Translations under genes and position numbers: made by a program | Shown: in pieces, positions 3,330 through 48,747 of the stretch | Numbering within the stretch: position 1 is the first letter of the stretch | Layout: each line of letters opens with the position of its first letter | Notes under the pieces: generated by a model | Told to the model about the DNA's origin: nothing | Database searches by the model: none | The model's input: only the letters and a program-made list of their open reading frames with translations | NCBI GenBank assembly: GCA_026387335.1 | Contig: JAPLLX010000001.1 | Coordinates: 106,620-170,619, forward strand | Length of the DNA stretch: 64,000 bases | Source: Candidatus Omnitrophota bacterium | Lineage (GTDB): Bacteria > Omnitrophota > Gorgyraeia > Gygaellales > Profunditerraquicolaceae | Direction of reading: 5' to 3'

Positions 3330-3361
3330 GAAATCTAAGTTACCTAAGAAGAGTAAATAAA

Positions 3362-5236: not shown

Positions 5237-5315
5237 TTATTAGAAGATTGCGCTCTATCAAAACAGGCGTTATTATCTTAGCAACATGTCCACTAAATAG
5301 GGACAGGTCAAATAG

Positions 5316-11000: not shown

Positions 11001-11074
11001 TGGTGGTTAAAAAGATAGAAGGATAGCTCGCTAGGTATATTATCTCTTGAAGAAATAGGAAGGGAGTGAAAAAT

Positions 11075-14906: not shown

Positions 14907-15950
14907 ATGATGAAAAACAAGTTTGAAGCTATTAAATATTTAATGAAGCCATTTTTTTTCTGGGTTCCCTCATATTTAAGAGAGAAAGTTATGTATCCGT
15001 ATGCTACATATTTTACATTGCCCCTGATAATAGATAAACCGAAAAACCTCATTTTGGAACTAACTAATATCTGTAATCTTAAATGCAAGATTTGCAATCG
15101 GCCCTCTCAAGAATCTCCGGTAGGCAGCATGCAGCTCTCTTTGGCTACGGAACTTATAAAGAGAGCCTATGATTGCGGTATAGATCAGGTTGCCTTCCAT
15201 ACCGTGGGGGAGCCGTTGGTATACCCTTATTTAAAAGAGGTGCTTACTTTCGCAAAAAAACTTGGTTATCCGATAATGATAAGCACCAACGCGAATTTAT
15301 TGACCAAAGAAAATTCAGATATGCTTTTAGACGTTGGTATCGATAGATTGCGTATTTCATTAGAAGGCACTGATGAAAAATATAATGAGGTAAGGGAGGG
15401 AGGAGATTTCAATAAGGTAATTAAAAACCTGGAATACTTTCATAAAAAGAGGCATGGGCATCCTAACATACGATTAGATCTGACTTATGTTATTACAAGA
15501 GATACTGTTGAATGCATTAAAAGTTTCCTGGAAAAATACAGTTATCTCTTTGACGAAATTATCTTTACGCCTCTTATTAACCAGGGGAATATGCAAAATG
15601 ATTATGTCAAAAACAGATCAATTATTTTGTTTAAAAATAACAGATACCCGTGCTTTAATTTATGGACAACCATGTATGTCACTTTTAATGGCGATGTCAG
15701 CGTGTGTTGTGTTGACTATAATCATAAATTGATTATTGGCAATGTGCATGACAGCTCGTTGCTGGATTTATGGAATTCAGATGCTTATAAACAGTATCGC
15801 AGGTTAAACAGGGAAGGAAAGGTTAATAAAATAAAGTACTGCAGCAATTGCACTGTGCCTGTTCTTGGAAGCAATTTTTATATGACTAAAATAGCGGATA
15901 AAGTAAGAAAAGACTATGGGTTAAGCATCAATATACTTGGTAGATACTAA
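14907..15950 (+). CDS. Radical SAM enzyme with C-terminal SPASM-type Cys-rich domain
   Basis: CX3CX2C 'CNLKCKIC', 'GEPLVYP', and C-terminal 'CFNLW...VSVCCVDYN...CSNCTV'. Confidence 0.75.
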   Translation: MMKNKFEAIKYLMKPFFFWVPSYLREKVMYPYATYFTLPLIIDKPKNLILELTNICNLKCKICNRPSQESPVGSMQLSLATELIKRAYDCGIDQVAFHTVGEPLVYPYLKEVLTFAKKLGYPIMISTNANLLTKENSDMLLDVGIDRLRISLEGTDEKYNEVREGGDFNKVIKNLEYFHKKRHGHPNIRLDLTYVITRDTVECIKSFLEKYSYLFDEIIFTPLINQGNMQNDYVKNRSIILFKNNRYPCFNLWTTMYVTFNGDVSVCCVDYNHKLIIGNVHDSSLLDLWNSDAYKQYRRLNREGKVNKIKYCSNCTVPVLGSNFYMTKIADKVRKDYGLSINILGRY

Positions 15951-18855: not shown

Positions 18856-20067
18856 ATGAACGATTCCTTAGTTATAAAACCGGTAAGGATTTTTATTATC
18901 CAGACTTTAACTTCGGCTTTATTTATGGCCGCCTATTATAAGCAAGAAAAAATGCGCGACGAAAAGTATCGTGATATCTGTGTTATTCCTTATTCAAAAA
19001 TATGTAATACTGATAATCAAGAATTTATTGTGGCTTGCAAAAATATTACCAGATTTATTTCTGAAGAAATAATTACCTTCGCGGAACAGGATATTTATTA
19101 TGTTCCAATGAGCTTTAAGAATCTAGGTCAGTATAGGCAAAAAAAGAAAAAATATTTAACTGTCATAAAAGAAATGTGTGAAAAGAACAATATAAGAATA
19201 GGTTTGATAAAGGAAATATATCACAGTAATCGAGCTTTCCATCAATATTTTAAATACTTAAATCCTAAAAGTAAATTAATCGGTTTTGAGCACGGGCTTA
19301 GCGATACCAGATGCTTCTTATTGCAAGATAACGCTATCAATATAATAAAGAATATCGTTAAATGCGTAATGGGGGGGATTTTTTTCATTTTTTATTCCTA
19401 TTTAGAAAATGATGATTTAAATGTTTCGTTATTGGCCCCCGAAATTAGAAAAATTAATAAAAAGATAAATATAAAGTATTTATACCCCAAACAAATTATT
19501 GAGATAGCAAACAAAATTGTCTATGATGATCTTAATGATACAGGTTTTTTTAACGAACATAAATCGATAGGAATAATAATAAACAGCGATGGTTTTAGCT
19601 TAGCTCAAAAAAGAGAGGATCGTTTAAAATTTCATAGGGATTTCGCTGTGTATATTTTAGAAAAAATAAAAGGATTATACCCTGAAGTTAAAACCATTAT
19701 TTTTAAAACCAGGTCTTTCGATCATATATTAGACAAGGATTTCTCTGATGTTAAAGAAGATTTGGTTAAGCTTTTCAATGGCTATAAAGTGTTCTTTTTT
19801 GACGAGATAACCAAAACAAATTATCCCCCTGAGTTTTATATAAATATTATACGTCCTAAATTTATTTTTGGTGATGTTTCTAGCGGACTTTTTTATTCTA
19901 AGGCCCTAATGCCAGAAATTGCAACTTATGATTATAATGAATACGTATCTAATTATGAATTTAAGCATTTTGGAGCTACTCTGCCAGATTATAAGTGGTT
20001 AAATGATATTTTCTTTAAGAGGTTCCGGGTTATCTTTAAAGATATTTTGCCAAAAAGGACCTTTTAG
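18856..20067 (+). CDS. Hypothetical protein (403 aa, N-terminal hydrophobic segment); candidate glycosyl/nonulosonate transferase
   Basis: Long ORF with coherent codon usage and no motif I recognise. Contains a G7+T7 homopolymer pair at 19371-19385. Confidence 0.3.
   Translation: MNDSLVIKPVRIFIIQTLTSALFMAAYYKQEKMRDEKYRDICVIPYSKICNTDNQEFIVACKNITRFISEEIITFAEQDIYYVPMSFKNLGQYRQKKKKYLTVIKEMCEKNNIRIGLIKEIYHSNRAFHQYFKYLNPKSKLIGFEHGLSDTRCFLLQDNAINIIKNIVKCVMGGIFFIFYSYLENDDLNVSLLAPEIRKINKKINIKYLYPKQIIEIANKIVYDDLNDTGFFNEHKSIGIIINSDGFSLAQKREDRLKFHRDFAVYILEKIKGLYPEVKTIIFKTRSFDHILDKDFSDVKEDLVKLFNGYKVFFFDEITKTNYPPEFYINIIRPKFIFGDVSSGLFYSKALMPEIATYDYNEYVSNYEFKHFGATLPDYKWLNDIFFKRFRVIFKDILPKRTF
19371..19385 (+). 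repeat. Homopolymeric G7-A-T7 tract inside the CDS 18856..20067
   Basis: 'gggggggatttttttc' read directly. A G7 run is unusual in this AT-rich sequence. Confidence 0.8.
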
Positions 20068-20135
20068 AAAATTAATTTTGAATGGGCGGAATTTTTAGCA
20101 GAATGATGAGCGCTACGATAAATAGAGATTGAATA

Positions 20136-21737
20136 ATGGCTAGTATGTTATTGGTACATTGCAATAGACTTGTTTCCGGTGTTCAATACCCCGGTATCTC
20201 AAGTATAGCTGCTTTTGTGAAGCGCGCTGGTCATAGAGTAATTTTTTTTGATACAGCTCATTACACAGACAGTAGAAGTATGGAATCATACAGTGCGTAC
20301 AGAGATATAAAGACTCGTATTGATTTGGAGTTTAAGGGTATAAAGAATAAACAGCTGATGCCATCAAAAAAACCAATAGATATATTACTCTGGGATCTTG
20401 AAAACGAATTTGCTAAAAATAGAATAGATATTATAGGGTTTTCTTCTTTTTCTGACGATTGGCCTTTCGCGCTTTTCCTAATAAAAAAGGTTCATGCTAT
20501 TGAACCAAATCTTCCGATTATTGTAGGAGGAATTCATGCTATTGTTAGTCCAGAGCAAGTGATTAAACATGATGAAGTTTCCATGGTTTGCGTAGGAGAA
20601 GGCGAGATGCCGATAGTTGAGTTATTAAACTCCATTGATGCCGGTAGAATTGATCTTAATATTAGAAATCTATGGATAAGGCACGAAGGGAAAATCATCC
20701 AAAACCCTAGGAGACCTTTATTGGCTTTCAGTGAAAATTTGCCGATGCTTGACTGGAGTTTATATAGCGGTATTCACTTTTATTTTCCTTTTGATGGTAA
20801 ATTATATCGGAGAGGAAGCGTTTTTATGGGCCGGGGTTGTCCATATTCATGTAGCTTTTGTATAAATAATTTCATTAAGAAAATCTATCCCAAAGAACAG
20901 GGTAGAACTTACCTTAAGAGCGTGGAATACCTGATAAAGGAGATTGTTTTTCTAAAAAATAATTACAATTTAGAGTTCCTGCGATTTTGGGATCAAACTT
21001 TTCTCGCCATGCCGAAGGGGTATTTATCGGAATTCGCAAAAGCTTATAATAAAGAAGTAAGGTTACCCTTTACGATAGAAACTATGGCTCAGACTGTTAC
21101 TCATGAGAATGCTAAGATGCTTGTTACTATGGGGTGTCAGTCCGTAAGTGTAGGAGTAGAGACTTCAAATGAGAATTTGAGAAAAAATATTCTAAACAAA
21201 CCGATAAAGAATGAGGTATATGATAGATGTTTTAAGATACTTTCAGAATACGGATTACGTAAAGTTGCTAATTTTATGTTTTTTCTTCCGCATCAAACAC
21301 TTGATGATATGTGGGAGGATGTTTCTATGTGTAAGAGATGGGGCATAGATCATCCCTCCGCCAGGATTTTCTATCCGTATCGGGGGACGCAATTACGCGA
21401 GTATTGTCTTAATAACGATTTACTTGATCTTGATCTTCTTGAGAGGATCGAGAATGAAAATGCGATCGGAGAGATAGGGAATTTAAATGAGAACCATGTT
21501 ACTTTTCAAGATACTGTTTTAAAATTTGATAACAAGCTAAAAGAAGAGGGAAGGCGGCTGCTGGATAATTTTATTTTATTTCAGGAGACTGAAGAATCAG
21601 CTTATGTCGATGTAAGAAAGTTACTTATAAAGAACGATATGGATTCGAATGACGCCTTGAGAAGAATGGAGCGCCAGATATATATAAAACGTTTTAAGGA
21701 AGAACCATTAACGGCAAATTACGGGATGAACTGTTGA
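20136..21737 (+). CDS. B12-binding-domain radical SAM enzyme (class B rSAM, copy 1)
   Basis: N-terminal B12-binding-like Rossmann region, then 'GRGCPYSCSFC' (CX3CX2C) and 'SVSVGVETSNE'. Confidence 0.8.
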   Translation: MASMLLVHCNRLVSGVQYPGISSIAAFVKRAGHRVIFFDTAHYTDSRSMESYSAYRDIKTRIDLEFKGIKNKQLMPSKKPIDILLWDLENEFAKNRIDIIGFSSFSDDWPFALFLIKKVHAIEPNLPIIVGGIHAIVSPEQVIKHDEVSMVCVGEGEMPIVELLNSIDAGRIDLNIRNLWIRHEGKIIQNPRRPLLAFSENLPMLDWSLYSGIHFYFPFDGKLYRRGSVFMGRGCPYSCSFCINNFIKKIYPKEQGRTYLKSVEYLIKEIVFLKNNYNLEFLRFWDQTFLAMPKGYLSEFAKAYNKEVRLPFTIETMAQTVTHENAKMLVTMGCQSVSVGVETSNENLRKNILNKPIKNEVYDRCFKILSEYGLRKVANFMFFLPHQTLDDMWEDVSMCKRWGIDHPSARIFYPYRGTQLREYCLNNDLLDLDLLERIENENAIGEIGNLNENHVTFQDTVLKFDNKLKEEGRRLLDNFILFQETEESAYVDVRKLLIKNDMDSNDALRRMERQIYIKRFKEEPLTANYGMNC

Positions 21738-22004
21738 ATCGGGAGAGCTTTTACAACATTGTTTGAAGCAAAAGTGCTTGTAGGACGCCGGAAGACAGAA
21801 TATAATACGGGTCAGGCCGCACAGTTCATTGAATTACAGTCTCCTGCTCCAGGGGCTATTAAGCCGGAATGGCTAGAAAATGCGGTTACTCTCTCTTAAG
21901 AACTGGTACAATTTATAGGAGCAGGTCACTTAATCAACAGTCTGTTTTTAATTATTTAAGAGAAGAAATAACTTGATGGCAAGCACTAATTTTACTATAA
22001 GTAT

Positions 22005-22970
22005 ATGAAAAAAAACCGGTTATTTAATAGGAGGATTTTAAAACTAAAATCATTAACCCAAAGGGAGCATGGGTTAAAGATTTCGATAATTGCGCCGTTA
22101 GAATTAAAGCATAATCTTGATCTAAATGGAGACCTAAAAAAGGTTGCTCAGCGAATAGCAAAGGCTAAGAAGAAGGGCGCATCTATTATATGGATGATAG
22201 GGGGGCATGTTATTAGATCCGGGGTTCAGCGATATATCATAGATTTGATGGAGAGAGGATATATTTCATGCCTGGCTATGAACGGAGCCGGGATTATCCA
22301 TGATTATGAACTTGCTCTTATCGGAGCAACTACCGAGAGCGTGGCTAAATATATCAAAGAAGGGCAATTCGGTTTATGGAAGGAAACAGGAGAAATCAAT
22401 AATATAATCAATAGAAGCTATAAACAGGGTCTTGGCCTGGGTGAGGGAGTCGGTAAGGCTATTTATGAAGGGAATTTTCCTTATAAAGAGTTTAGCCTGC
22501 TGGCGGCTGGTTATCGTTTGAAGGTTTTAGTAACGGTGCATGTCGGCATAGGTTACGATATTATCCATGAGCATCCTAATTGCGACGGCGCGGCAATGGG
22601 CGCAACTTCTTACCGCGATTTCCTAATGTTTGCTAAAGTCATTAGTAACTTGGAAAAAGGAATTATAATGAATTTCGGTAGCGCGGTAATGGCCCCGGAG
22701 GTATTTTTGAAGGCTTTGAGTATGGCCAGGAACGTTGCTCATCAGAGGAGGAAACAAATAAAGCATTTTACTTCTGTTGTTTGCGATCTTTATAATTTAC
22801 CACCTAAATTTAGCAAAGAGCCGGGGAAACACAATCCGGGTTATTATTTTAGGCCGTGGAAGACAATGCTTGTTAGGACAGTAGCTGACGGAGGAAGCGC
22901 TTTTTACATAAAAGGCTGCCATGCGGATGTAATCCCTGCACTATGGAAGGAAATTAATGAAAGTTCTTGA
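22005..22970 (+). CDS. Hypothetical protein with deoxyhypusine-synthase-like sequence pattern
   Basis: 'IIWMIGGHVIRSGVQRYIIDLMERGYISCLAMNGAGIIHDYELAL' parallels the DHS core '[43 protein letters not shown]'. By-eye similarity only. Confidence 0.3.
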   Translation: MKKNRLFNRRILKLKSLTQREHGLKISIIAPLELKHNLDLNGDLKKVAQRIAKAKKKGASIIWMIGGHVIRSGVQRYIIDLMERGYISCLAMNGAGIIHDYELALIGATTESVAKYIKEGQFGLWKETGEINNIINRSYKQGLGLGEGVGKAIYEGNFPYKEFSLLAAGYRLKVLVTVHVGIGYDIIHEHPNCDGAAMGATSYRDFLMFAKVISNLEKGIIMNFGSAVMAPEVFLKALSMARNVAHQRRKQIKHFTSVVCDLYNLPPKFSKEPGKHNPGYYFRPWKTMLVRTVADGGSAFYIKGCHADVIPALWKEINESS

Positions 22971-23433
22971 GTTCGATGCCTTAGCCGAAAAAATCAAGTG
23001 CTTAAAAGGCCCTGGAAAGAAAATTATCCTTTGTCACGGATGTTTTGATCTAATGCATCCCGGGCATATAAAATATTTTCAGGCAGCCAAGAAAATGGGA
23101 GATATCCTTGTGGTAACGGTTACCCCTGATATTTATGTTGATAAAGGGCCGGGTAGGCCGGTATTTAACCAGCAATTGCGCTCTGAATCAATCGCGGCTC
23201 TTGAGTGTGTTGATTATGTAGCAATTAATAAATGGCCTACGGCGGAAGAAACCATTAGATTATTAAAGCCTGATATATATGTAAAAGGGCAGGAGTTTGA
23301 AGGGCTTAAAGATAAAACCGGAAAGCTTCAGAAAGAATTAAAAGTTATTCAAGAGGTCGGAGCCGAAATCAGGTTTACGCATGAAATAGTATTTTCCTCA
23401 ACGGATTTAATTAATAACAACCTTAAGAGATAA
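22957..23433 (+). CDS. Cytidylyltransferase-like nucleotidyltransferase (RfaE/HldE domain II-like, stand-alone)
   Basis: 'ILCHGCFDLMHPGHIKYF' (HxGH) and 'DILVVTV'. 158 aa. Confidence 0.7.
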   Translation: MKVLEFDALAEKIKCLKGPGKKIILCHGCFDLMHPGHIKYFQAAKKMGDILVVTVTPDIYVDKGPGRPVFNQQLRSESIAALECVDYVAINKWPTAEETIRLLKPDIYVKGQEFEGLKDKTGKLQKELKVIQEVGAEIRFTHEIVFSSTDLINNNLKR

Positions 23434-23435
23434 AA

Positions 23436-24968
23436 ATGAAAAACTCACCTAAAAGCAAAATATTGTTACTCGACGATTTAATTAAAAAAGTAAGTAGCCT
23501 GCGGGCTTCCGGGAAAGTTGTAGTTCAGAGCCACGGGATTTTCGACTTGATCCATCCGGGAGTAATCGAGCATCTTAAATCAGCCAAGGAGCGAGGGGAT
23601 ATATTAATAGCTACTGTTATAGCGGATAAAGATGTACGTAAGGGTCCGGGAAGGCCGATCTTTCCTGGAAACTTGAGGGCAGATAATGTGGCGAGCCTCT
23701 CAATGATTGATTATGTTTGCGTGGTCAGCGATGAAAAGCCTTTTGAATGCGTAAAAAGGATAAAACCTGATATTTTTGCCAGGGGTAAATCCATAAAAGA
23801 CCAAGCCAATGAAATCAGCAATAAGATATTTGAAGAGGAAAAGGAGCTTTATTTTGGTAAGGTGAGGATCCATGAGACCGGCGGATTCTCTTTAAGCTCA
23901 TCGGAAATAATCAATAATTTTCTCGATATCTATCCGGAAGAGGTAAAAAGCTTCCTGAAGCGTTTCTCTAAGAAGTATAACTTTAAGGAAATCAGCGAAA
24001 AGATCAATAGCCTAAAGAAGCTAAAGATCCTGCTTATCGGCGATGGGATAATCGATGAGTATCATTATTGCGAGGCAATGGGCAGGTCAGCCAAAGCCCC
24101 ATTAGTGGTGAACAAATACATAACCCATGAAGTATTTGCCGGGGGCGCTTTTGCTATTGCGAACCACTTGGCGGGATTATCAAGCGATATCCACTTAGTT
24201 TCTTTGCTGGGGAATGATCTCGCGAAGGAAGATTTCATCCGCTCCAGCTTAAAGCCGAACGTAACTCCGAAGTTTTTTTACCGCAAAGACGGCTCAACTG
24301 TGGTTAAAAAGAGGTACATTAATCAGTATCAGAACCAGAAGCTTTTTGAAGTCAATTACCTGAGTGATGCCTATATTAACGGAGGGCTTGAATCGGAAAT
24401 AATCAAGTATCTAAAAGGCACGGTAAAGTCTTATGATTTAATTTTGATCTCTGACTTTGGACATGGGTTCATTACGAACAGGATAATCGAAACGATCCAA
24501 AATTCCGGAGTAAAATTCGCGGTGAATACCCAGACAAATGCCGCTAATGCCGGTTACAACATGATTACTAAATATCGTAAGCCGCTTTATGTTTGCCTGG
24601 ATGAACCGGAGTTAAGATGGGCAGCGCAGGAGAGATTCGCCGATATTGAATCTGTGGCTAAGAAAATTCTGGAAAGCATACATGCTTCTAACCTTATTGT
24701 GACCTTGGGTAAAAGAGGTTCATTCGGGATAAATAATAAGGACCAGGTAAATCATACGCCGATTTTTTCTTCAAAAGTTATAGATACTGTTGGCGCAGGA
24801 GACGCCTTTTTTGCTTTTACTGCGCCCTGTATCGCTCAGAAGATGCCTCTGGATTTAGTTTCTTTTATCGGAAACGCCGTGGGCGCCTTAGCCGTCCAGA
24901 TCGTTTGTAATAAGAGACCGGTTGAGAAGTACGAGTTATTTGAGTTTATTCACGCGCTTTTAGAATAA
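23436..24968 (+). CDS. Bifunctional sugar-phosphate nucleotidyltransferase (N-terminus) / pfkB-family sugar kinase (C-terminus); HldE-like with reversed domain order
   Basis: N-terminus 'VVVQSHGIFDLIHPGVIEHL' (HxGH). C-terminus ribokinase-family 'DTVGAGDAFFA' and 'KILLIGDGIIDEYHYCEAMGRSAKAPL' like HldE domain I. Confidence 0.75.
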   Translation: MKNSPKSKILLLDDLIKKVSSLRASGKVVVQSHGIFDLIHPGVIEHLKSAKERGDILIATVIADKDVRKGPGRPIFPGNLRADNVASLSMIDYVCVVSDEKPFECVKRIKPDIFARGKSIKDQANEISNKIFEEEKELYFGKVRIHETGGFSLSSSEIINNFLDIYPEEVKSFLKRFSKKYNFKEISEKINSLKKLKILLIGDGIIDEYHYCEAMGRSAKAPLVVNKYITHEVFAGGAFAIANHLAGLSSDIHLVSLLGNDLAKEDFIRSSLKPNVTPKFFYRKDGSTVVKKRYINQYQNQKLFEVNYLSDAYINGGLESEIIKYLKGTVKSYDLILISDFGHGFITNRIIETIQNSGVKFAVNTQTNAANAGYNMITKYRKPLYVCLDEPELRWAAQERFADIESVAKKILESIHASNLIVTLGKRGSFGINNKDQVNHTPIFSSKVIDTVGAGDAFFAFTAPCIAQKMPLDLVSFIGNAVGALAVQIVCNKRPVEKYELFEFIHALLE

Positions 24969-24973
24969 GAGGG

Positions 24974-25549
24974 TTGACGATGAAGAATAAAATAAAAAAT
25001 TATCATAAAAAATTTATTAACTTAATCAACTCGATTGAGGTTACGGATAGATCTGGGAAAGCCTTGGATTTTTATCAAGGGATTGAATTAGCTTGTTCAG
25101 TCATTAGAAAGCAATCTCGGCTAGGAGGAAAGGTTTTCTTTATCGGAAACGGAGGGAGTGCGGCTATCGCCAGCCACATGGCTATTGATTTCTGGAAAAA
25201 CTTAAAGATAGAGGCACTCTCTTTTAGCGATAGCTCTCTTTTGACCTGCATCAGCAATGATTTTGGCTATGACTATGTCTTTGCCAAGCCAATTGAATTC
25301 TTTGCCGGTAAAAAGGATATCTTGCTTAGTATCAGCAGTTCTGGAAAATCCCAAAATATACTTAAGGCAGTAGCTGCGGCTAAAGCCAAAGGAGCCAGCG
25401 TCATAACCTTATCCGGTTTTAGCAAAAATAATCCCTTAAGGCTCAAGGGTATTTGTAATTTTTATGTTCCAGCAAGCGAATACGGGCTTGTGGAAGTAGG
25501 GCATCAATACGTTTGCCATTATATTGCCGATATCTTATTGCAGAAATAA
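24974..25549 (+). CDS. gmhA: Sedoheptulose-7-phosphate isomerase (SIS domain, GmhA)
   Basis: 'KVFFIGNGGSAAIASHMAIDF' and 'ISSSGKSQNIL' are GmhA SIS signatures. 191 aa. Confidence 0.8.
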   Translation: MTMKNKIKNYHKKFINLINSIEVTDRSGKALDFYQGIELACSVIRKQSRLGGKVFFIGNGGSAAIASHMAIDFWKNLKIEALSFSDSSLLTCISNDFGYDYVFAKPIEFFAGKKDILLSISSSGKSQNILKAVAAAKAKGASVITLSGFSKNNPLRLKGICNFYVPASEYGLVEVGHQYVCHYIADILLQK

Positions 25550-25550
25550 A

Positions 25551-26618
25551 ATGGATGAATTCAAAATAGACAGCCATAAATTAATCTATCATGTTTCAAG
25601 GGTGAATGACTGGATAGAGGGTAAAAATATCTTTCCGATTTACCTTGAAATATCGACTTCAGGTTCCTGTAATCACCGCTGCACTTATTGCGCCTTGGAT
25701 TTTATGGGGTATCAGCCGAGGTTTCTGAAAACGGATATTTTGAAGAAAAGGCTTTCTGAGATGGCGCGTCTGGGCGTGAAAAGTATCATGTACGCAGGAG
25801 AAGGCGAGCCACTTCTGCATAAAGATATAGCAGAAATAATTAATCACACCAAGAGTTCAGGTATTGATGTGGGACTGACCACCAACGGAGTCTTACTAGA
25901 CAAAGAGTTAATTGACCGGACTTTGGCTAATGTTTCTTGGGTTAAAGTAAGTATAAACGGCGCAACTAAAGAAACTTATAGAAAAATTCATCAAAGCAAA
26001 GCGGTTGATTTAGATAAAGTGATTAAGAATATGAGATACGCTGTTAAATCGCGCATTAAGAATGGACACAAATGCGTTCTTGGGATGCAGCTTTTGCTTT
26101 TACCGGAAAACAGCAAGGAGGTTAAAGCATTAGCTGTGTTGGCAAGCGGAATAGGTCTGGATTATTTAGTGGTAAAGCCTTATTCGCAGCATCCATTTAG
26201 CAAAACTACTAGGTATAAGAATATTAAATATGATAAATATCTTAAGCTTGCTGATGAACTAAAAGCTTTTAAGACAGATAAATTTAATGTGATCTTTCGC
26301 GCAAATACTATGAAGAAGTGGGATCATGAGACACGTAACTATAAACATTGTTATGCTTTACCTTTCTGGTCTTATATTGATGCGGGTGGAAATGTATGGG
26401 GATGTAGCGTTTACCTGGGGAAGAACGAATTCCTGTACGGAAATATTTATAAGCAAGATTTTAAGGATATTTTGAACAGTCCTAAGAGATCGAGAATAAT
26501 TAAAATGGCTGCCCGGAAGCTTTGTGTTAAGGATTGCAGGGTAAATTGCAGGATGGATGAAATCAACAGGTATCTTTGGGAACTCAAACATCCATCAGAA
26601 CACGTTAATTTTATTTAA
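25551..26618 (+). CDS. Radical SAM enzyme (unknown subfamily) with Cys-rich C-terminus
   Basis: 'GSCNHRCTYC' (CX3CX2C), 'YAGEGEPLL', and C-terminal Cys cluster 'CSVYLG...CVKDCRVNC'. Confidence 0.7.
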   Translation: MDEFKIDSHKLIYHVSRVNDWIEGKNIFPIYLEISTSGSCNHRCTYCALDFMGYQPRFLKTDILKKRLSEMARLGVKSIMYAGEGEPLLHKDIAEIINHTKSSGIDVGLTTNGVLLDKELIDRTLANVSWVKVSINGATKETYRKIHQSKAVDLDKVIKNMRYAVKSRIKNGHKCVLGMQLLLLPENSKEVKALAVLASGIGLDYLVVKPYSQHPFSKTTRYKNIKYDKYLKLADELKAFKTDKFNVIFRANTMKKWDHETRNYKHCYALPFWSYIDAGGNVWGCSVYLGKNEFLYGNIYKQDFKDILNSPKRSRIIKMAARKLCVKDCRVNCRMDEINRYLWELKHPSEHVNFI

Positions 26619-26655
26619 GGTTTTGAATAAAAACATGGAAGGAAAAAAGCTGAGT

Positions 26656-27522
26656 ATGGCGCGCAGTGGTAATAATAAAGATTCAAAACGAATTCTAATT
26701 ACTGGCGCAGGTGGTTTTGTGGGAGGTGCGCTTTTTTCCAAGTTAAAATATGCTAAACCCATTGGCGTAGATTTTGGAATAACAGAGGGTTGTCAAGAAA
26801 ATAAATTATTCAATGTTGACCTTAGAGATGAAGAGGCAGTTAAAACCTTGTTTAATGAGTATTCGCCGGATATAGTATTTCATTTTGCTGCGTTGACTTC
26901 TCCGCAACGAAACGAAAAGAATATCGAGCTTGCTACTGAAGGTCACATTAAAATAACTAACAATATTTTAAATAATTTAAATAAGGATACTCACCTAATA
27001 TTTTTGTCAACTGATAAAGTCTTCGATGGAGTAGATCCTTGTCCGGATGAAAAGGCAAAAGTAAATCCTTTATGGATATACGGAAAACTTAAATGGGAAT
27101 GCGAGAATATCGTTCAAGAACGCTTAAAGAAATCCCATATATTCAGGCTGGGTATTGTGCATTCGTTGGGAGATTGTTTTGCTTCGTCCAAAGAGTCGGG
27201 CCCAAGTTCTTTTGTAGATAAGGCCATTATTGATATAAAAGCCGGCAGAGAAGTAGTGGTATTTGATAATGTCGAGCGTTGTTTTGTAAGATTACGGTTA
27301 CTGGTAAAATTATTAGAAATGGCAATGGATGATTGTCATTATGGAATCTATCATGTTGGTTCAGCGATGATGAATTATTATGATAGGATCCGAATCCTAT
27401 GCGAAGAAGAACGGATAAAATGGGAAGGTAAGCTTATCCCAAGATCCGGTAAGGTATTACCAATAGCGCAGAATTTGAATACAGGTAAGCTTAAGAGGGT
27501 TTTTGGTCTAACCTTCAATTAA
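26656..27522 (+). CDS. NAD-dependent epimerase/dehydratase (extended SDR)
   Basis: 'ILITGAGGFVGGALF' and 'YGKLKWECE' (YxxxK). Start chosen at the ATG after SD-like 'GGAAGGA'. Confidence 0.6.
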   Translation: MARSGNNKDSKRILITGAGGFVGGALFSKLKYAKPIGVDFGITEGCQENKLFNVDLRDEEAVKTLFNEYSPDIVFHFAALTSPQRNEKNIELATEGHIKITNNILNNLNKDTHLIFLSTDKVFDGVDPCPDEKAKVNPLWIYGKLKWECENIVQERLKKSHIFRLGIVHSLGDCFASSKESGPSSFVDKAIIDIKAGREVVVFDNVERCFVRLRLLVKLLEMAMDDCHYGIYHVGSAMMNYYDRIRILCEEERIKWEGKLIPRSGKVLPIAQNLNTGKLKRVFGLTFN

Positions 27523-27564
27523 ACGGGAACGAATAATAATGATGAGCAGAAAAGGAATTAAATA

Positions 27565-28614
27565 ATGAGTGTTTATCCTTTTGTTTTTAAGGCAGCCATA
27601 CTCGAAAAAAATAATAAACCCCTGGTTATTGATAGCATTGAATTTCCCGGACCATTATTAGCGGGACAGGTTTTGGTTAAACTGAGCTATAGCGGAATCT
27701 GTGGAAAGCAGATTGAGGAAATCGATGGAACAGATGGTTCTGACCCGTGGCTACCGCATCTTCTTGGCCATGAAGGTAGCGGCGAAGTCATTGATGTAGG
27801 GCCGGCAGTTATAAAAGTTAAGAAAACTGATACGGTAGTTTTACACTGGATGAAGGGAAGCGGTATCCATTCATCTACCCCACTTTATTTCCGTAAAGGT
27901 TCCCGAATTAACGCGGGATGGGTTACTACCTTTAATGAATTCGCGGTTGTTTCGGAGAATCGGGTTACCCCTATTCCTAAAGGCAGTGATTTGTTAGTTA
28001 GCGCTTTGTTAGGTTGCGCTGCTACTACTGGGGTGGGCGTGGTGATTAATGAAGCGCAAGTTCAGCCTTATGATACGGTGGTTGTTTATGGTTGCGGCGG
28101 TATTGGATTATGTGCAGTGCAAGCTGCGCGGCTAAGATATCCCCGCAAAATTATTGCCGTAGATATTAATAAAGATTCTCTTGTTTTAGCGCGTCAATTT
28201 GGAGCAACGGATTTGATAAATGCGTCAGAAGAAAACGTACTTGAGTATGTGCGTAAGCTTACATCAGGATGCGGCGCAACAAAAGTGATTATTGCTACAG
28301 GTAATCCAGAGGCTATTGAGTTAGCTGTGGAAACAGCAGGGATTCCAGCTCAGGTCTTTTTTGTAGGGGTTCCACCCAAAGGGAGTAAGGTAAAATTGGA
28401 TGCGCATGCAATTATGCATAAAAGATGTATTAATGGTACTCTCGGAGGCGGTATTTGGCCAGATAGAGATATCCCAACTTATTTATCTATGCATAAAGAA
28501 GGCCAGTTGCATTTAGATAAAGTTGTTTCGCGTATCGTACCGTTCGCTGAGATTAACGAGGTAATAAAACAGAAACGCGCAGCGATTGCCGGACGCTGCG
28601 TAATAAAATTTTGA
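27565..28614 (+). CDS. Zinc-dependent medium-chain dehydrogenase/reductase (ADH family)
   Basis: 'GICGKQIEEIDG' and 'GHEGSGEVIDVG' (Zn-ADH signature), plus 'VYGCGGIGL' NAD-binding. Confidence 0.8.
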   Translation: MSVYPFVFKAAILEKNNKPLVIDSIEFPGPLLAGQVLVKLSYSGICGKQIEEIDGTDGSDPWLPHLLGHEGSGEVIDVGPAVIKVKKTDTVVLHWMKGSGIHSSTPLYFRKGSRINAGWVTTFNEFAVVSENRVTPIPKGSDLLVSALLGCAATTGVGVVINEAQVQPYDTVVVYGCGGIGLCAVQAARLRYPRKIIAVDINKDSLVLARQFGATDLINASEENVLEYVRKLTSGCGATKVIIATGNPEAIELAVETAGIPAQVFFVGVPPKGSKVKLDAHAIMHKRCINGTLGGGIWPDRDIPTYLSMHKEGQLHLDKVVSRIVPFAEINEVIKQKRAAIAGRCVIKF

Positions 28615-28638
28615 AATACAAATTTTAAAGAGGTGGGT

Positions 28639-29415
28639 ATGAATTTTGGAATAAAAGATAAAAAAGTTTTAGTTACTGGAGCCAGTAAAGGCATTGGAGC
28701 GGCTATAGCAAGGGCTTTTGCAGCTGAAGGATGCAGATTGTCGTTAATAGCGCGCAATAAAGATAAGCTAAAACAATTATTTGAAGAGATTGGCGGCACT
28801 GTGAAGGGGCATGAATTTCTCTCTATAGATTTGATGGAGCCGGGTGCGCCAACAAAAGCAGTAAAGTCGCTTTTAAAAGATAGCGATCCTTTTGATATAG
28901 TGGTTCATAATGTTGGCGGCGCATTAGGCCTTAAGGATATTTTTGCTCCACTTGGTGATTGGGCTGATGTCTGGCGGTTCAATGTGGGTATTGCTATTGA
29001 GATGAACCGTATTTTGATTCCTCCTATGCGTCAAAGAAAATGGGGTAGAGTGGTTCATCTTTCGTCGATATCCGGAGATCTTGGGGAACCGTTAGAGCCT
29101 TTTGGCGGAGCAATACCTTACGCAGCTGCCAAGGCATATTTAAATGCTTATGTGAAAGGGCTTGGTAGGGAATTAGCCAGGGATAATGTAATTATTTCTG
29201 GCGTGATGCCGGGAGCAGCGCTTTCTGAAGGAAAATATTGGGATAAGACAGTAAAGAATGATCCTGTGCTTGCCAAGAAATTTCTTGATCATTATTATCC
29301 TATTGGACGCTTTGGAAAGCCAGAAGAAATTGCGCCGTTTGTTGTTTTATTAGCATCCGAGCGTGCGACTTTTGCGGCTGGTACATTGATTCCTGTGAGC
29401 GGTGGACGAGTATAA
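28639..29415 (+). CDS. Short-chain dehydrogenase/reductase (classical SDR)
   Basis: 'VLVTGASKGIGAAIA' and 'YAAAKAYLNAYVK' (YxxxK). SD 'AAAGAGGTGGG'. Confidence 0.8.
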   Translation: MNFGIKDKKVLVTGASKGIGAAIARAFAAEGCRLSLIARNKDKLKQLFEEIGGTVKGHEFLSIDLMEPGAPTKAVKSLLKDSDPFDIVVHNVGGALGLKDIFAPLGDWADVWRFNVGIAIEMNRILIPPMRQRKWGRVVHLSSISGDLGEPLEPFGGAIPYAAAKAYLNAYVKGLGRELARDNVIISGVMPGAALSEGKYWDKTVKNDPVLAKKFLDHYYPIGRFGKPEEIAPFVVLLASERATFAAGTLIPVSGGRV

Positions 29416-29435
29416 AAATTATAAAGGATTAAAAA

Positions 29436-30236
29436 ATGGACGAGAGGTCTCGTTATCTTCGTAGACTTATTTTATCTGGTATAGAAGGGACAAGAAAAGG
29501 GCATATAGGATCTGCCTTGTCGGTAGTTGAGATTATCAGGGTTCTTTATGATGATATTATGAAGTATCGTCCGCAGGAACCTTTATGGCCGGAAAGGGAT
29601 AGATTTATTCTTAGTAAGGGGCATGGTTGTTTGGCGTTGTATGCAGTATTGGCAGATAAAGGTTTTTTGGATGTAGAAGAATTGAAAACTTATGCTTTAG
29701 AAAATTCGAGATTGGGTGGGTGTCCTGAAAGTTTAGTGCCTGGTATAGAAGCGACGACAGGCGCCTTGGGGCATGGTTTGTCTATAGGGGTCGGAATGGC
29801 CCTTGCTAGCCGCATACAAAATAGGAGAAGCCGCGTATATGTTGTTCTTGGAGATGGTGAACTCGACGAGGGTTCTATATGGGAAGCGGCTTTGTGTGCC
29901 GCCAAACATAAATTATCGCATTTGACGGCTATTATTGATTGTAATAAGTTACAGCTTGGGGGATCGACAAAAGAAATATTAAACCTTGAGCCATTAAGAG
30001 AAAAGTGGATTAGTTTTGGCTTTACAGTAGAAGAAGTTGATGGGCATAATGTTGATACTCTTAAGGCAACCTTTAAAAGGCTTCCTTTCTCAAGCGATAA
30101 GCCATCAATGGTGATTTGTCATACGATTAAAGGTAAGGGGTTTTCTTTTGCGGAGAACGATTATAAATGGCATTGGAAAAGCGGAATTGATGATGCGACT
30201 ATCTTAAAAATGAAATCTTCATTGGAGAAAGAATAA
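29436..30236 (+). CDS. Transketolase, N-terminal subunit (split transketolase, copy 2)
   Basis: 'RFILSKGHGCLALYAVL', 'GALGHGLSIGVGMALA' and 'GDGELDEGSIWEAA'. About 45% identical to copy 1 at protein level. Confidence 0.85.
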   Translation: MDERSRYLRRLILSGIEGTRKGHIGSALSVVEIIRVLYDDIMKYRPQEPLWPERDRFILSKGHGCLALYAVLADKGFLDVEELKTYALENSRLGGCPESLVPGIEATTGALGHGLSIGVGMALASRIQNRRSRVYVVLGDGELDEGSIWEAALCAAKHKLSHLTAIIDCNKLQLGGSTKEILNLEPLREKWISFGFTVEEVDGHNVDTLKATFKRLPFSSDKPSMVICHTIKGKGFSFAENDYKWHWKSGIDDATILKMKSSLEKE

Positions 30237-31174
30237 TGTTTTACGCTTTTAGGGATACAATCTATGAATTAGCAAAGATGGATAAAAGGATAATTCTTAT
30301 TAGTGCTGATCAAGATGTGGGGTTAAGCCATATGCAATCCGAAATGCCTAACCAGTTTTTTATGGAAGGAATATCAGAAGCTAATGCGATAGGTATGGCT
30401 TCGGGCCTTGCTGCCGATGGTTTTAGGCCTTTTATATTGAACCATGCAAGTTTTTTGACCAGAAGGTGCTATGAACAGATTGTTTTGGATGCCTGTTTGC
30501 AGGAGCGTCCTATACGGCTGGTTGGTATGGGTTCTGGGTTAGCAACCGCTCACCTAGGGCCTACACATACGATTATTGAAGATATAGCAATAACGCGGGC
30601 TATCCCAGGAATGACTGTTATTGCTCCCTGCGATGCTGTTGAGATGAAGAAACTGATGCCGCACATATTAAAATGGCCGAAACCTGTTTATCTAAGGCTT
30701 GCAAGGTATGGAAAACCGATAGTTACTAGGGATGAAGGCGAGGTTGAAATTGGAAAGGCTGTGGTGCTTTACAAAGGTGAGTCATCCAAAAAAAACGTGT
30801 TGTTGATTTCTACAGGCGCTATGACATTAAGCGCAATAAAAGCAGTTGAAGAGCTTAAAGAGGCTGGTATTGAATGTACGGTATTGCATTTCCATACCAT
30901 AAAACCTCTGGATAAGAATGCGATTATTGAACTGGCACAAAAAGCCAAGTTGATAGTTACTTTGGAAGATCATACTATTATAGGAGGATTAGGCAGTGCT
31001 TGCTTAGAGGTTCTTATGGATAATATACATTCTAAAAATCTGCCGCAGGTTTATCGTATGGGCCTTCCTGATAAATTTATACATCAGTATGGAACACAAG
31101 AGTCATTAATGGAAGAATTTGGATTACAGCCTTTGCAGATTGCCAACAGAATAATGAAGCTTATGAAAAAATAA
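30236..31174 (+). CDS. Transketolase, C-terminal subunit (copy 2)
   Basis: Overlaps the upstream stop. Pyrimidine-binding domain 'EGISEANAIGMASGLA' plus C-terminal domain. Confidence 0.85.
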   Translation: MFYAFRDTIYELAKMDKRIILISADQDVGLSHMQSEMPNQFFMEGISEANAIGMASGLAADGFRPFILNHASFLTRRCYEQIVLDACLQERPIRLVGMGSGLATAHLGPTHTIIEDIAITRAIPGMTVIAPCDAVEMKKLMPHILKWPKPVYLRLARYGKPIVTRDEGEVEIGKAVVLYKGESSKKNVLLISTGAMTLSAIKAVEELKEAGIECTVLHFHTIKPLDKNAIIELAQKAKLIVTLEDHTIIGGLGSACLEVLMDNIHSKNLPQVYRMGLPDKFIHQYGTQESLMEEFGLQPLQIANRIMKLMKK

Positions 31175-31235
31175 AAGTAACTTTTATAATGTCAAATTTT
31201 CGCTGGAGAAAGGCAGTTAACAATAACTAGTTAGC

Positions 31236-32471
31236 GTGAATCAAAGAATCGTGCGTTTTATCCATAATCAAGTTGATAGGATTAATGAAGGCGGGTTATC
31301 CATTTTAGTTCGGAATTTTCTTCTTCTTTTGATAACGCCATTTTTAGTATTAATAGTTTTGTTTGTGCGGCTTTTACGGCCCTTGATATTGATAAGATTC
31401 GGAGAATTAATTAGTTCTAGAATAGGTCATTTTATGAGTAATACTGAAGTATATCTTTGTGAGCGCGATTTGGGTATTCGTGGACAACGAGGTTTAGACA
31501 TATTTTATATCAATAGCTCTGTTTGTAATAAGCAATTAAAAAGAATGTGGAGCCGTGTTTTGTATATTTCTCTTTTTGCAACAGGGTTAGATTTACTCAA
31601 TCGCGCATTGCCCGGAGGGGATAAACATAGAATTCCATACCGGAATTATCAGGACAGGGATATTTATGGAGTCCTTGAATCTACAAAAGTTCATATTTCC
31701 TTTACCAGCGAAGAGGAGCGCATTGGCAGGGCATTATTAAAGAAGATTGGTATAGGAAGCGAATCCACTTTTATTTGTTTTCTTTCCAGAAACTCGGCTT
31801 ATTTGGATGCCAAATTCCCAAAAGGGAACTGGCATTATCATGATTATAGAGACTCTAATATTAAAAACTTTATTCCTGCGGTTGAAGAATTAACGCGTAG
31901 AGGATATTTTGCAGTAAGAATGGGGGCTGTAGTTAATGAAGAGTTAAAAACCGAAAATCCTATGATTATTGATTATGCAGTGAAACACAGGACAGATTTT
32001 CTTGATATTTATATGGGCGCAAAATGTAATTTTTATTTAGGTGATTCCTGTGGTTTTCATGCTATCCCTATGATATTCAGGCGGCCATTAGCGATTGTGA
32101 ATATGATTCCGCTTGAATGGGCTACTACATGGGGCTTACAGAATCTTTTTATTTCCAAAAAGTTATGGTTGTGCAAAGAGCATCGTTTATTAACTTTTCG
32201 TGAAATACTCAGTTCGGAAATAGGAAGGATTGGTGACGGCTGGCAGTATGAACAATTAGGTATAGAAGTAATTGAGAATACTCCTGAGGAAATTACTGCT
32301 TTAGCCATAGAAATGGATCAGCGTTTAAAAGGCCAGTGGCAGGCGGCTGAAGGTGACGAAGAGTTGCAGCAGCGTTTTTGGTCATTATTTAAGTCAAGTG
32401 AATTAAATGGCGTTTTTTTATCGCGTATTGGCGCGGAGTTTTTGCGTCAAAATAAAACACTACTGGAATAG
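31236..32471 (+). CDS. Hypothetical protein with N-terminal TM anchor (411 aa); possible glycosyltransferase-like
   Basis: 'LLLLITPFLVLIVLFVRLL' TM helix followed by a soluble domain with no recognisable motif. Confidence 0.3.
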   Translation: MNQRIVRFIHNQVDRINEGGLSILVRNFLLLLITPFLVLIVLFVRLLRPLILIRFGELISSRIGHFMSNTEVYLCERDLGIRGQRGLDIFYINSSVCNKQLKRMWSRVLYISLFATGLDLLNRALPGGDKHRIPYRNYQDRDIYGVLESTKVHISFTSEEERIGRALLKKIGIGSESTFICFLSRNSAYLDAKFPKGNWHYHDYRDSNIKNFIPAVEELTRRGYFAVRMGAVVNEELKTENPMIIDYAVKHRTDFLDIYMGAKCNFYLGDSCGFHAIPMIFRRPLAIVNMIPLEWATTWGLQNLFISKKLWLCKEHRLLTFREILSSEIGRIGDGWQYEQLGIEVIENTPEEITALAIEMDQRLKGQWQAAEGDEELQQRFWSLFKSSELNGVFLSRIGAEFLRQNKTLLE

Positions 32472-32479
32472 GATAGATT

Positions 32480-34273: not shown

Positions 34274-34343
34274 GATGTGCCGCCTTAATCTTAACCCGTT
34301 TAGTTCATGGCCTATTGATTCAGATATAGCTGTGGTAAGAACT

Positions 34344-43555: not shown

Positions 43556-43574
43556 GTAACCAAGGAGTTTAGTG

Positions 43575-48657: not shown

Positions 48658-48747
48658 TCAAGTGGTTTTCAAGTTAGCGCCGGACTTTTGTTAAGACACG
48701 TTTCAAAAATTTAGAATAACGTAAAGTAATCTAGCGATAGTTGAACC

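Follow-up and report, generated by a model that had tools for sequence, protein, structure and literature searches.

The 64,000-nucleotide stretch analysed here, referred to as the window, lies on contig JAPLLX010000001.1 of Candidatus Omnitrophota and is a glycan super-locus of ~37% G+C. Positions 22005-31174 of the window carry one copy of a gene cassette that is conserved in many phyla, and we favour, on balance, its reading as a variant of the nucleoside diphosphate (NDP)-heptose pathway with extra tailoring enzymes. Its central protein joins a nucleotidyltransferase domain and a sugar kinase in the reverse of the order known from HldE. On its own, the reversed order would be a modest curiosity. 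Stronger findings are the tight three-way coupling of a stand-alone nucleotidyltransferase (NT), a degenerate copy fused to the kinase (NT') and a protein of deoxyhypusine synthase (DHS)-like fold, and the conserved partnership of a radical S-adenosylmethionine (SAM) enzyme, hereafter rSAM, with a thiamine diphosphate (TPP) enzyme. The core features are as follows.

22005-22970, + strand: GSU2086-family protein with a DHS / LOR-SDH / AgrE-C-terminal-like fold (NF052581)
22957-23433, + strand: stand-alone canonical NT with HPGH, RfaE-domain-II-like (PF01467, E 2.6e-16)
23436-23960, + strand: kinase-fused NT' domain, a degenerate transferase paralogue in which HxGH has become HPGV
23997-24968, + strand: pfkB sugar kinase domain, HldE-domain-I / HldA-like (PF00294, E 2.8e-25)
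24974-25549, + strand: SIS-domain ketose-phosphate isomerase, GmhA-like (TIGR00441, 97.7 bits)
25551-26618, + strand: radical SAM enzyme with a SPASM/twitch-like C-terminal domain (PF04055, E 1.7e-24; PF13186, E 6e-7)

The original prediction, made from the letters of the window, had singled out four open reading frames (ORFs), and all four are present: 22957-23433 (158 aa), 23436-24968 (510 aa), 24974-25549 (191 aa) and 25551-26618 (355 aa). Public gene calls agree with them, except that the SIS gene starts at ATG 24980 (189 aa). That prediction did not include the cassette gene at 22005-22970, which precedes the stand-alone NT gene and overlaps it by 14 nt, nor the downstream block at 26557-31174 (RmlD-like extended short-chain dehydrogenase/reductase (SDR), zinc-type alcohol dehydrogenase (Zn-ADH), classical SDR and split transketolase), which recurs in relatives. 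Throughout 22005-31174 the genes overlap or are separated by gaps of at most 42 nt, and a gap of 267 nt lies upstream of the block. ORFs of at least 120 aa off the main gene series all lie within or overlap a longer + strand ORF. Promoter and terminator scans of 20000-33000 returned 38 and 10 sites, respectively, against 36.2 and 10.0 expected from shuffles, and carry no information on the limits of an operon.

The comparative set consists of 99 loci from genomes and metagenomes that encode relatives of the fusion, scored by tblastn with the window proteins. The fusion is at least 50% identical to that of the window in 43 of them, termed close relatives, and less than 50% identical in the 56 distant relatives, which take in Bradyrhizobium sacchari, Azospirillaceae and Planctomycetaceae; the counts refer to loci in which the flank suffices. 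The same gene order is found in other genomes, the cassette recurring in many phyla of bacteria and archaea. The 510-aa fusion has more than 1,800 relatives in the databases. The best 120 are 60-100% identical, with Omnitrophota, Elusimicrobiota, Brocadia and an uncultured archaeon as the named sources. Hundreds to thousands of public sequences carry the cassette; they come from Omnitrophota, Elusimicrobia, anammox Brocadiales, Nitrospina, Rokubacteria, Methanoperedens and DPANN archaea. Nitrospina sp. 32_T5 (L020) has the cassette in full. The GSU2086-like and rSAM families are similarly large and similarly conserved. Database labels of the fusion read ‘PfkB family carbohydrate kinase’, ‘rfaE bifunctional protein kinase chain/domain’ or ‘FAD synthase’.

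These loci show directly which genes are present, how the domains are ordered, which state the motifs have and how far the genes are conserved and co-occur, and the arrangement is far beyond chance, given profile E-values of 1e-10 to 1e-25 and synteny across many bacterial and archaeal phyla. A canonical NT gene lies upstream of the fusion in 27/28 close relatives versus 1/46 distant ones, and the GSU2086-like gene is found in all 18 close relatives with at least 2 kb of upstream sequence and in 0/38 distant relatives. The SIS gene is directly 3' of the kinase in both groups (25/29 close, 33/40 distant), and a homologue of the N-terminal transketolase subunit (TK_N) lies downstream in 13/20 close and 11/23 distant relatives with at least 9 kb of downstream flank. 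These counts identify the reversed NT-kinase and the SIS protein, often accompanied by the split TPP enzyme and Zn-ADH, as the ancient core; the second transferase and the DHS-like protein define the clade of the window. Some relatives, of 668-692 aa, are NT-NT'-kinase triple fusions, and in the protein P0186 the GSU2086-like protein is fused to a canonical NT. All four domains are thus linked by gene fusion.

The reversed domain order, proposed from the ORF translation, is confirmed by hidden Markov models, which place PF01467 at residues 34-159 of the 510-aa protein and PF00294 at residues 197-488. The kinase half corresponds to positions 4-310 of the HldE profile (NCBIfam NF008454), and the 158-aa NT, a single cytidylyltransferase-like domain, to positions 322-469; the order is therefore reversed relative to HldE, and the 510-aa protein lacks the N-terminal kinase/C-terminal adenylyltransferase order that defines HldE. 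The whole length of the kinase can be aligned with HldA 4e84, and GDxxxDxY and GAGD are retained. The ‘DTVGAGDAFFA’ segment on which the kinase had been recognised is present and nearly invariant across the family; DTVGAGDAFF and LIGDGIIDEYHY are invariant or nearly so in 20 family members and align with 4e84. The rfaE_dom_I model gives 128 bits (127.9) on the kinase against a cutoff of 345, and the next-best subfamily, ribokinase, gives 54 bits. The original prediction had allowed that the C-terminal domain might not be a sugar kinase at all; it is a sugar kinase of the HldE/HldA type.

The transferase motif of the stand-alone NT reads HGCFDLMHPGHIKYF. The rfaE_dom_II model scores 105.5 bits on NT and 79.2 bits on NT', with a cutoff of 181.5. 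Membership in the glycerol-3-phosphate cytidylyltransferase (TagD) class, the other reservation of the original prediction, is argued against by the g3p_cytidyltrns model, which reaches 43.6 and 20.4 bits on the two domains compared with 105 and 79 for rfaE_dom_II (TIGR01518 cutoff, 165.4). The stand-alone NT has a mean identity of 50.4% to the single fused NT of other clades, and NT' of 41.8%. From its sequence, the stand-alone NT is presumed to be an active heptose-1-P nucleotidyltransferase.

The two transferase domains had been taken for tandem HxGH domains, which does not hold for the fused copy. It reads HGIFDLIHPGVIEHL, that is HPGV, with Val replacing the second His. An alignment of 124 domains has the second His in 86/86 canonical domains and in 0/38 NT' domains, and 12 of the 30 positions that are near-invariant in canonical domains are altered in NT'. 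NT' copies are nevertheless 64% identical to each other on average, and NT and NT' of the window are 37% identical (E 3e-36) and share the KGPGRP motif. Motif state tracks architecture almost perfectly. Among the 38 loci with a degenerate HPG[I/V/L/M] fused domain, 34 have a canonical NT upstream, and each of the 4 exceptions has less than 250 nt of upstream flank; a second NT is missing from 51/52 loci with a canonical fused domain. Nucleotidyl transfer in this superfamily requires the second His of HxGH, as TagD mutagenesis exemplifies. Its loss suggests that the fused copy is probably not a second active transferase. The simplest reading of the sequences is a duplication followed by catalytic loss in the kinase-fused copy, which would have been kept as a docking or dimerisation partner of the active copy.

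The invariant H46 of NT' (HPGVIEH) was considered as a compensating His and rejected, since the same His is found in canonical domains of other clades (HLGHIRH). We also note two metagenome loci that are exceptions to the motif rule. Both transferase domains of L114 have HPGH, and L117 has a GSU2086-like gene followed by a kinase fusion with an N-terminal domain that resembles the stand-alone type (HGCFDLMHIGH); the two may be evolutionary intermediates. A sub-clade of four loci (L006, L122, L131 and L135; ~50% identity) has NT and NT'-kinase with the fused motif [Y/V]G[V/I]FDI[I/L]HPGII[R/A]HL and no GSU2086-like gene, including L135 with 9.6 kb of upstream sequence. The DHS-like protein is thus not strictly required by the NT/NT' architecture.

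The GSU2086-family protein scores 391.4 bits with NF052581 against a cutoff of 250, its residues 8-315 covering profile positions 3-300 of 301. Its AF2 model has a mean predicted local distance difference test (pLDDT) score of 79.5. The best Foldseek matches of the model, with probability 1.0 and a template modelling (TM) score of ~0.5, are 3c2q, 6juy/6lrg and 7cmc; the matching folds are the LOR/SDH protein 3c2q, the C-terminal domains of ArgZ and AgrE, and deoxyhypusine synthases. The AgrE structure was solved with NAD+ and ornithine. A profile search against PDB sequences is marginal, in that only the first Rossmann segment and the invariant HDxE align with ArgZ/AgrE (E 0.007-0.12). The protein is probably dinucleotide-dependent. 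Characterised enzymes of this fold oxidise their substrate transiently by means of bound NAD+, and on that ground, together with the gene context, we guess that it could be a redox-neutral epimerase or oxidoreductase with a heptose phosphate or NDP-heptose as its substrate, possibly an analogue of the 6-epimerase HldD, although we would put the chances of this somewhat below even. It was also considered as the missing phosphatase of the pathway. It co-occurs with a true GmhB and has the fold of NAD enzymes, so that it is not simply the missing phosphatase, and the idea is rejected as a leading reading only.

The SIS protein was described as GmhA, and its best PDB matches agree with a GmhA-like protein (1x94, E 4e-25; B. 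pseudomallei GmhA, E 1e-22), with the TIGR00441 score of 97.7 bits lying below the gmhA membership cutoff of 209.45. We take the zinc and catalytic residues of B. pseudomallei GmhA to be His, Glu, Gln and His. In the alignment to 5ltz, 5lu7 and 1x94, the SIS protein has at these positions H, D in place of E, E in place of Q, and H; the E aligns with a residue that itself differs (E vs Q) between 5ltz and 5lu7. The protein also keeps SSSGKS and NDFGYD. The view that the module is of the heptose-nucleotide type is sustained by the NCBIfam search, in which HldE, rfaE_dom_I, rfaE_dom_II and gmhA are the top matches, ahead of ribokinase and TagD. Heptose is the likely sugar core.

It had been remarked that no GmhB-like phosphatase is adjacent, and this extends to the whole 64-kb window, in which no GmhB-type HAD is found by tblastn (best E 4.4) or by Pfam scans of ORFs of at least 120 aa. 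No hldD was found within the window either. The suggestion that the HAD domain fused to the NeuA-like protein at 9825-11000 might substitute for GmhB is not upheld: this domain is Hydrolase_3-type, the kind fused to CMP-sugar synthetases, and relatives with a linked phosphatase carry a true GmhB instead. A tblastn search with archaeal GmhB against the window and 17 related loci gave a match in L086 only. Later scans added HADs in L091, L092 and L171, of which those of L091 and L092 are HAD homologues in the same position as in L086. The cassette of the archaeal loci L086 and L171 (Methanoperedens) has transaldolase and HAD genes directly upstream. The L086 HAD is above the curated GmhB cutoffs (202.4 > 178 and 169.8 > 149.6) and has a counterpart in L171, and the L086 transaldolase is above its own cutoff (346 > 246). 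A GT9-family glycosyltransferase gene abuts the rSAM gene in L169. GSU2086 of Geobacter sulfurreducens is located between hldE and gmhA, and mutants of all three genes share a fitness defect (PMC5585712).

The original prediction had the rSAM gene start 2 nt after the SIS stop; its ATG at 25551 is 1 nt past the SIS stop codon. The protein has the same length of 355 aa as nearly all homologues listed. Its CX3CX2C motif (C40, C44 and C47) is invariant and places it in the radical SAM core family. Only four further invariant Cys, C267, C285, C329 and C333, are present in the C-terminal domain, and a check for the full seven-Cys SPASM pattern, which serves two auxiliary clusters, found these four in a region of PF13186 match (E 6e-7) with pLDDT <50. 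The count of cysteines in the sequence suffices for one auxiliary cluster. No NCBIfam equivalog is reached, the best being a W-cofactor maturase (97.6 vs 380), with BlsE at 48 vs 400 and DesII at 44 vs 450. The structural neighbours found by Foldseek are DesII (E 9e-13), SuiB, BlsE (E 1.5e-10), SkfB, MoaA and viperin, and the best PDB sequence matches are BlsE and MoaA. The substrates of DesII, BlsE, MoaA and viperins are nucleotides, a nucleoside sugar or a sugar nucleotide.

That the rSAM gene is a conserved partner and no chance neighbour is supported by the presence of an orthologue in 14/22 close relatives with enough flank; among distant relatives it is present in 3/29. Reciprocal look-ups were started from three members of the rSAM family on long contigs. 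Two of them recovered SDR, NT-kinase, SIS, rSAM, split TPP enzyme, second rSAM and B12-rSAM genes, and the third recovered GT9, rSAM, split TPP enzyme and more tailoring genes. The rSAM gene usually sits directly before the split transketolase/DXS-like enzyme, which starts no more than ~250 nt after the end of the rSAM gene in 9 loci. In L087 an extended SDR epimerase/dehydratase takes the place of the rSAM; its best matches are the GalE, RmlB and HldD models, all below cutoff. In archaeal loci, PF08421/PF08484 methyltransferase genes follow the TPP enzyme (L086, 17568-21530; L171, 16175-19527). These domains, which we associate with TylC3-type sugar C-methyltransferases, suggest keto-sugar nucleotide intermediates, on which enzymes of the TylC3 type act, and they hint at C-methylated, branched heptose derivatives in Methanoperedens-type archaea. 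Taken together, the fold neighbours, the adjacency to the TPP enzyme, the SDR of L087 and the TylC3-type domains favour a role in which the rSAM generates or handles an oxidised sugar-nucleotide intermediate, and it is presumed to be a tailoring enzyme of a sugar nucleotide. We also note a second radical SAM/SPASM protein at 14907-15950 (347 aa; SPASM, E 6.5e-18), distantly related to that at 25551. Relatives often have a paralogous rSAM of 356-370 aa after the transketolase.

The downstream block consists of the following genes.

26557-27522, + strand: RmlD-like extended SDR, reductase or epimerase (PF04321, E 6.5e-25; PF01370, E 6.8e-22)
27565-28614, + strand: zinc-type medium-chain alcohol dehydrogenase (PF00107, PF08240)
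28633-29415, + strand: classical SDR (PF00106, E 9e-34)
29436-31174, + strand: split TPP enzyme, TK_N at 29436-30236 and Pyr/C at 30236-31174 (PF00456, E 3e-49; PF02779, PF02780)

The RmlD-like SDR has a counterpart (49% identical) in L142 beside Zn-ADH, SDR and transketolase genes. Zn-ADH homologues of 41-66% identity are found near the kinase in L005, L087, L091, L104, L136, L142, L146 and L151 and in the alphaproteobacterial loci L008 and L010, and homologues of the classical SDR (51-65% identity) in L087, L101 and L142. The split TPP enzyme is intermediate in sequence between transketolase and DXS. Its N subunit matches transketolase best (244.6 bits vs a cutoff of 488), and its C subunit has the functional split transketolase of Carboxydothermus, 6yaj (E 2.6e-45), as its best PDB match, with NCBIfam scores of 201.8 bits for dxs and 195 bits for transketolase. 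The acceptor loop of the C subunit, ADQD--VGLS, lacks the Ser-containing DLSKST segment of the Carboxydothermus enzyme, typical of transketolases, and is DXS-like there. A second split pair, with TK_N at 630-1421 and Pyr/C at 1361-2305, is a paralogue of the pair at 29436-31174 and is followed by two SDR epimerase/dehydratases (2286-4282).

The split TPP enzyme may serve precursor supply, making sedoheptulose-7-P from fructose-6-P together with transaldolase, which is attractive for archaea. Alternatively, it may be a tailoring enzyme that attaches a C2 unit to an aldehydo- or keto-sugar. YerE and AviB1/AviB2 are precedents for TPP-dependent enzymes that give sugar nucleotides a two-carbon branch. 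The presence of two split transketolase pairs in one glycan locus argues that at least one has a tailoring role, and tailoring is made more attractive by Bradyrhizobium, which should need no extra supply, and by the frequent adjacency to rSAM.

We infer each of the catalytic steps of the pathway from homology. The GmhA-like SIS protein would convert sedoheptulose-7-P to heptose-7-P, which the pfkB domain of the 510-aa protein would phosphorylate at O-1. The 7-phosphate would be removed by a GmhB phosphatase, which is not encoded in the window and is linked to the cassette in archaeal relatives, and the stand-alone 158-aa NT with its intact HPGH would then make the NDP-heptose. NT' is probably a non-catalytic partner that would dock the active NT onto the kinase in a pseudo-heterodimer. 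It is a guess that the GSU2086-family protein acts on the heptose, as epimerase or oxidoreductase, and likewise that the rSAM does so, by oxidation, epimerisation or dehydration at an unactivated carbon. Two roles are conceivable for the split transketolase/DXS-like enzyme, Zn-ADH and SDRs: they would either supply sedoheptulose-7-P, or extend or branch the oxidised sugar and reduce the product. A joint reading of these proposals is speculative, and we rather doubt that it is right in full: the cassette would make an undescribed heptose-derived sugar nucleotide through radical and thiamine chemistry, with the GSU2086 family as a new class of NAD enzyme. In such a route the rSAM, or the SDR that replaces it, would oxidise an unactivated position of the NDP-heptose, the split TPP enzyme would add a two-carbon unit to give a branched or chain-extended C9 sugar, and Zn-ADH and the SDRs would reduce it. 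The GSU2086 family would then be an NAD-dependent epimerase or oxidoreductase of sugar phosphates or sugar nucleotides on the deoxyhypusine synthase fold. If true, this would explain the role of heptose genes in archaea.

Several observations weigh against the pathway as drawn. All heptose models are far below their curated cutoffs (HldE, 159.3 bits vs 521), so that heptose is no more than the probable substrate. The resemblance of the kinase to HldA is weak (E 1e-9), and in the PDB sequence search the stand-alone NT matches ethanolamine-phosphate cytidylyltransferase (E 1e-18) better than HldC (E 7e-15). Pfam scans of the ORFs of the 64-kb window found neither a phosphatase nor a GT9 heptosyltransferase. 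NT' is under strong purifying selection and hence could have an activity of its own. The likeness of the GSU2086-like protein to NAD enzymes is remote (TM ~0.5, identity 12-16%, profile E 0.007). The rSAM model is moderate (pLDDT 71, with a poor C-terminal domain), and the gene is absent from 8/22 close and most distant relatives, which makes the rSAM optional.

The low heptose scores are also compatible with a different product. The cassette might make another higher-carbon sugar nucleotide, such as an octose, with the transketolase (in archaea together with transaldolase) building an unusual ketose phosphate that the SIS isomerase, kinase, phosphatase and transferase would then activate, in analogy to the lincosamide GDP-octose route of LmbR, LmbN, LmbP, LmbK and LmbO. 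This would account for the split transketolase near the kinase in about half of the loci, including Bradyrhizobium, which should not need extra sedoheptulose-7-P, for the two transketolase pairs of the window and for the atypical transketolase with its DXS-like acceptor loop. Nevertheless, the phosphatase of the L086 cassette matches beta-heptose 1,7-bisphosphate phosphatase at the curated cutoff, GSU2086 lies within the hldE-gmhA operon of Geobacter, and a GT9-family transferase abuts the rSAM gene in L169. Transketolase and transaldolase, moreover, give sedoheptulose-7-P from fructose-6-P in archaea without a pentose-phosphate pathway, and the pair exactly suffices for it. We regard the octose route as unlikely. 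The polyol phosphate route is less probable still. It would have TagD-/TarI-like domains activate a polyol phosphate to a CDP-alditol for a teichoic-acid-like decoration, with Zn-ADH as the ketose-phosphate reductase. TarJ-type reductases belong to the medium-chain alcohol dehydrogenase family, a medium-chain Zn-ADH recurs in the neighbourhood, and the PDB sequence matches include ethanolamine-phosphate and glycerol-3-phosphate cytidylyltransferases. The profile scores, however, stand at 105 bits for rfaE_dom_II and 44 for g3p_cytidyltrns, GmhA-like and GmhB genes accompany the transferase, and a fused HldE-type anomeric kinase would be superfluous for a polyol phosphate.

A more conventional explanation is the ordinary ADP-L-glycero-D-manno-heptose pathway for the lipopolysaccharide (LPS) core, with the rSAM, DHS-like and transketolase genes as unrelated neighbours. 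Omnitrophota are diderm, the best matches are HldE and GmhA, and GSU2086 of Geobacter is kept with LPS heptose genes. This explanation is improbable in view of the co-occurrence of the accessory genes with the core in unrelated phyla and in archaea, which lack LPS, and of the gene fusions that join GSU2086-like protein, NT, NT' and kinase. The module also resides in a locus of glycosyltransferase, flippase, ABC exporter, NeuB and methyltransferase genes, away from core genes of the waaC/waaF type. A further alternative retains the heptose and gives NT and NT' activities of their own, yielding two NDP-heptoses (e.g. ADP- and CDP-heptose), or a new activity of NT', for example on the bisphosphate. 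The strong conservation of NT' (64% mean identity), with KGPGRP and the first His kept, would suit such an activity, and a relaxed choice of nucleoside triphosphate is documented for heptose nucleotidyltransferases (PMC11573728). The second His is, however, invariant in 86/86 canonical domains and needed for catalysis, and 12/30 near-invariant positions are altered. The loci in which NT' has no canonical NT alongside all lack flank, as would be expected if NT' depended on an active partner, and we consider two active transferases to have little chance of being correct.

The favoured reading, an NDP-heptose pathway variant, has the enzyme families in common with the known heptose pathway: SIS isomerase, pfkB anomeric kinase, cytidylyltransferase-like NT and, in relatives, the GmhB HAD. 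The motifs GAGD, GDxxxDxY, HxGH (in the stand-alone NT) and KGxxRP and the metal and catalytic positions of GmhA are kept. This is in contrast to HldE in the order of transferase before kinase, the extra stand-alone NT and a fused copy without the second His. Other differences from the known pathway are that a DHS-fold protein is a constant companion of the cassette, that rSAM and the split TPP enzyme are frequent ones, that the window has no hldD or GT9 gene, and that all proteins are far below the equivalog cutoffs. The single NT-kinase fusions of Alphaproteobacteria (e.g. Bradyrhizobium sacchari p9-20, L014), Planctomycetes and metagenomes, at 35-49% identity, share with the window the reversed order, the adjacent SIS gene, the frequent split transketolase and Zn-ADH. 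They differ in the canonical fused HxGH, the lack of a second NT and of a GSU2086-like gene (0/38), and the rarity of the rSAM gene (3/29).

Partial parallels are also found outside heptose metabolism. Ethanolamine-phosphate cytidylyltransferase (ECT/Pcyt2, PDB 3elb), the best PDB sequence match of the stand-alone NT (E 1e-18, in two stretches), has two tandem cytidylyltransferase folds in one chain, and the triple-fusion relatives would form a similar internal pseudo-dimer. ECT nevertheless acts on another substrate class, and in the window the two folds are on separate polypeptides, the second fused to the kinase. DesII and BlsE, which act on a TDP-sugar and a nucleoside-sugar, share with the window rSAM the CX3CX2C core and a context of sugar-nucleotide tailoring; the window rSAM is only 13-20% identical to them, and its four-Cys C-terminal domain is poorly modelled. 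The GSU2086-like protein has the fold, the first Rossmann segment and HDxE in common with deoxyhypusine synthase and the LOR/SDH-type ornithine cyclodeaminase domain of ArgZ/AgrE. The substrates of those enzymes are amines, whereas the GSU2086-like protein has enzymes of sugar phosphates and sugar nucleotides as its partners. We know of no characterised member of the GSU2086 family.

NDP-heptoses are building blocks of LPS, capsules and S-layer glycans, and are innate-immune agonists sensed via ALPK1. A survey of heptose enzymes lists monodomain NT, kinase/NT and isomerase/kinase/NT architectures only (PMC11573728, commentary), and the architecture of the cassette is outside this published catalogue. 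In the commentary, the authors of the survey call the archaeal role of heptose unknown and expect neighbouring genes to give clues (PMC11573728). Heptose-rich S-layer glycans and pools of ADP- and GDP-heptose have been reported in anammox bacteria, and C10 ulosonic acids of unknown origin in Magnetospirillum (SugarBase preprint); neither report makes a link to genes, in the former case to those of the cassette. The literature searched contained no publication on the cassette, no heptose-acting radical SAM enzyme, no link of a radical SAM enzyme, DHS-like protein or transketolase to heptose biosynthesis, and nothing on bradyrhizose with transketolase. The coupling of heptose genes to a radical SAM and a TPP enzyme thus has no precedent that we found. 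NT' provides a clean natural case of a transferase domain that was duplicated, lost a catalytic residue and yet is conserved, and the GSU2086 family of DHS fold is tied to heptose metabolism by synteny, gene fusion and the Geobacter fitness phenotype. The cassette points to new sugar chemistry in uncultured bacteria and archaea.

Beyond the cassette and the second split transketolase, the glycan locus of the window includes two NeuB genes, two CMP-sugar synthetases, two B12-radical-SAM genes, the second SPASM radical SAM gene, many SDRs, methyltransferases and glycosyltransferases, a flippase, an ABC exporter, RmlC and RmlD genes and an AsnB-type amidotransferase. Every 2-kb bin of the window (1-64000) has a positive GC skew, and the main gene series is wholly on the + strand; such uniformity over 64 kb is unusual. 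The NeuB-type synthases and CMP-sugar synthetases are encoded at 9825-11000, 11066-11923, 34275-35399 and 40721-41446 and point to two separate nonulosonic/ulosonic acid pathways. One of the two synthetases carries the fused Hydrolase_3-type HAD, and a homologue of it lies near the cassette in L007. The two B12-binding radical SAM enzymes, at 20136-21737 and 43572-45173, resemble HpnJ, BchE and P-methyltransferases, far below cutoffs, and may serve to C-methylate sugars. In L086, L169, L170 and L020, too, B12-rSAM genes come after the cassette. Eleven sizeable ORFs of the glycan locus have no Pfam match at E 1e-5, among them 4286-6652, 11949-13817, 18856-20067, 31236-32471, 45498-47186, 47590-50541, 57083-58630 and 60658-62055, and are candidates for novel glycosyltransferases, polymerases or membrane proteins.

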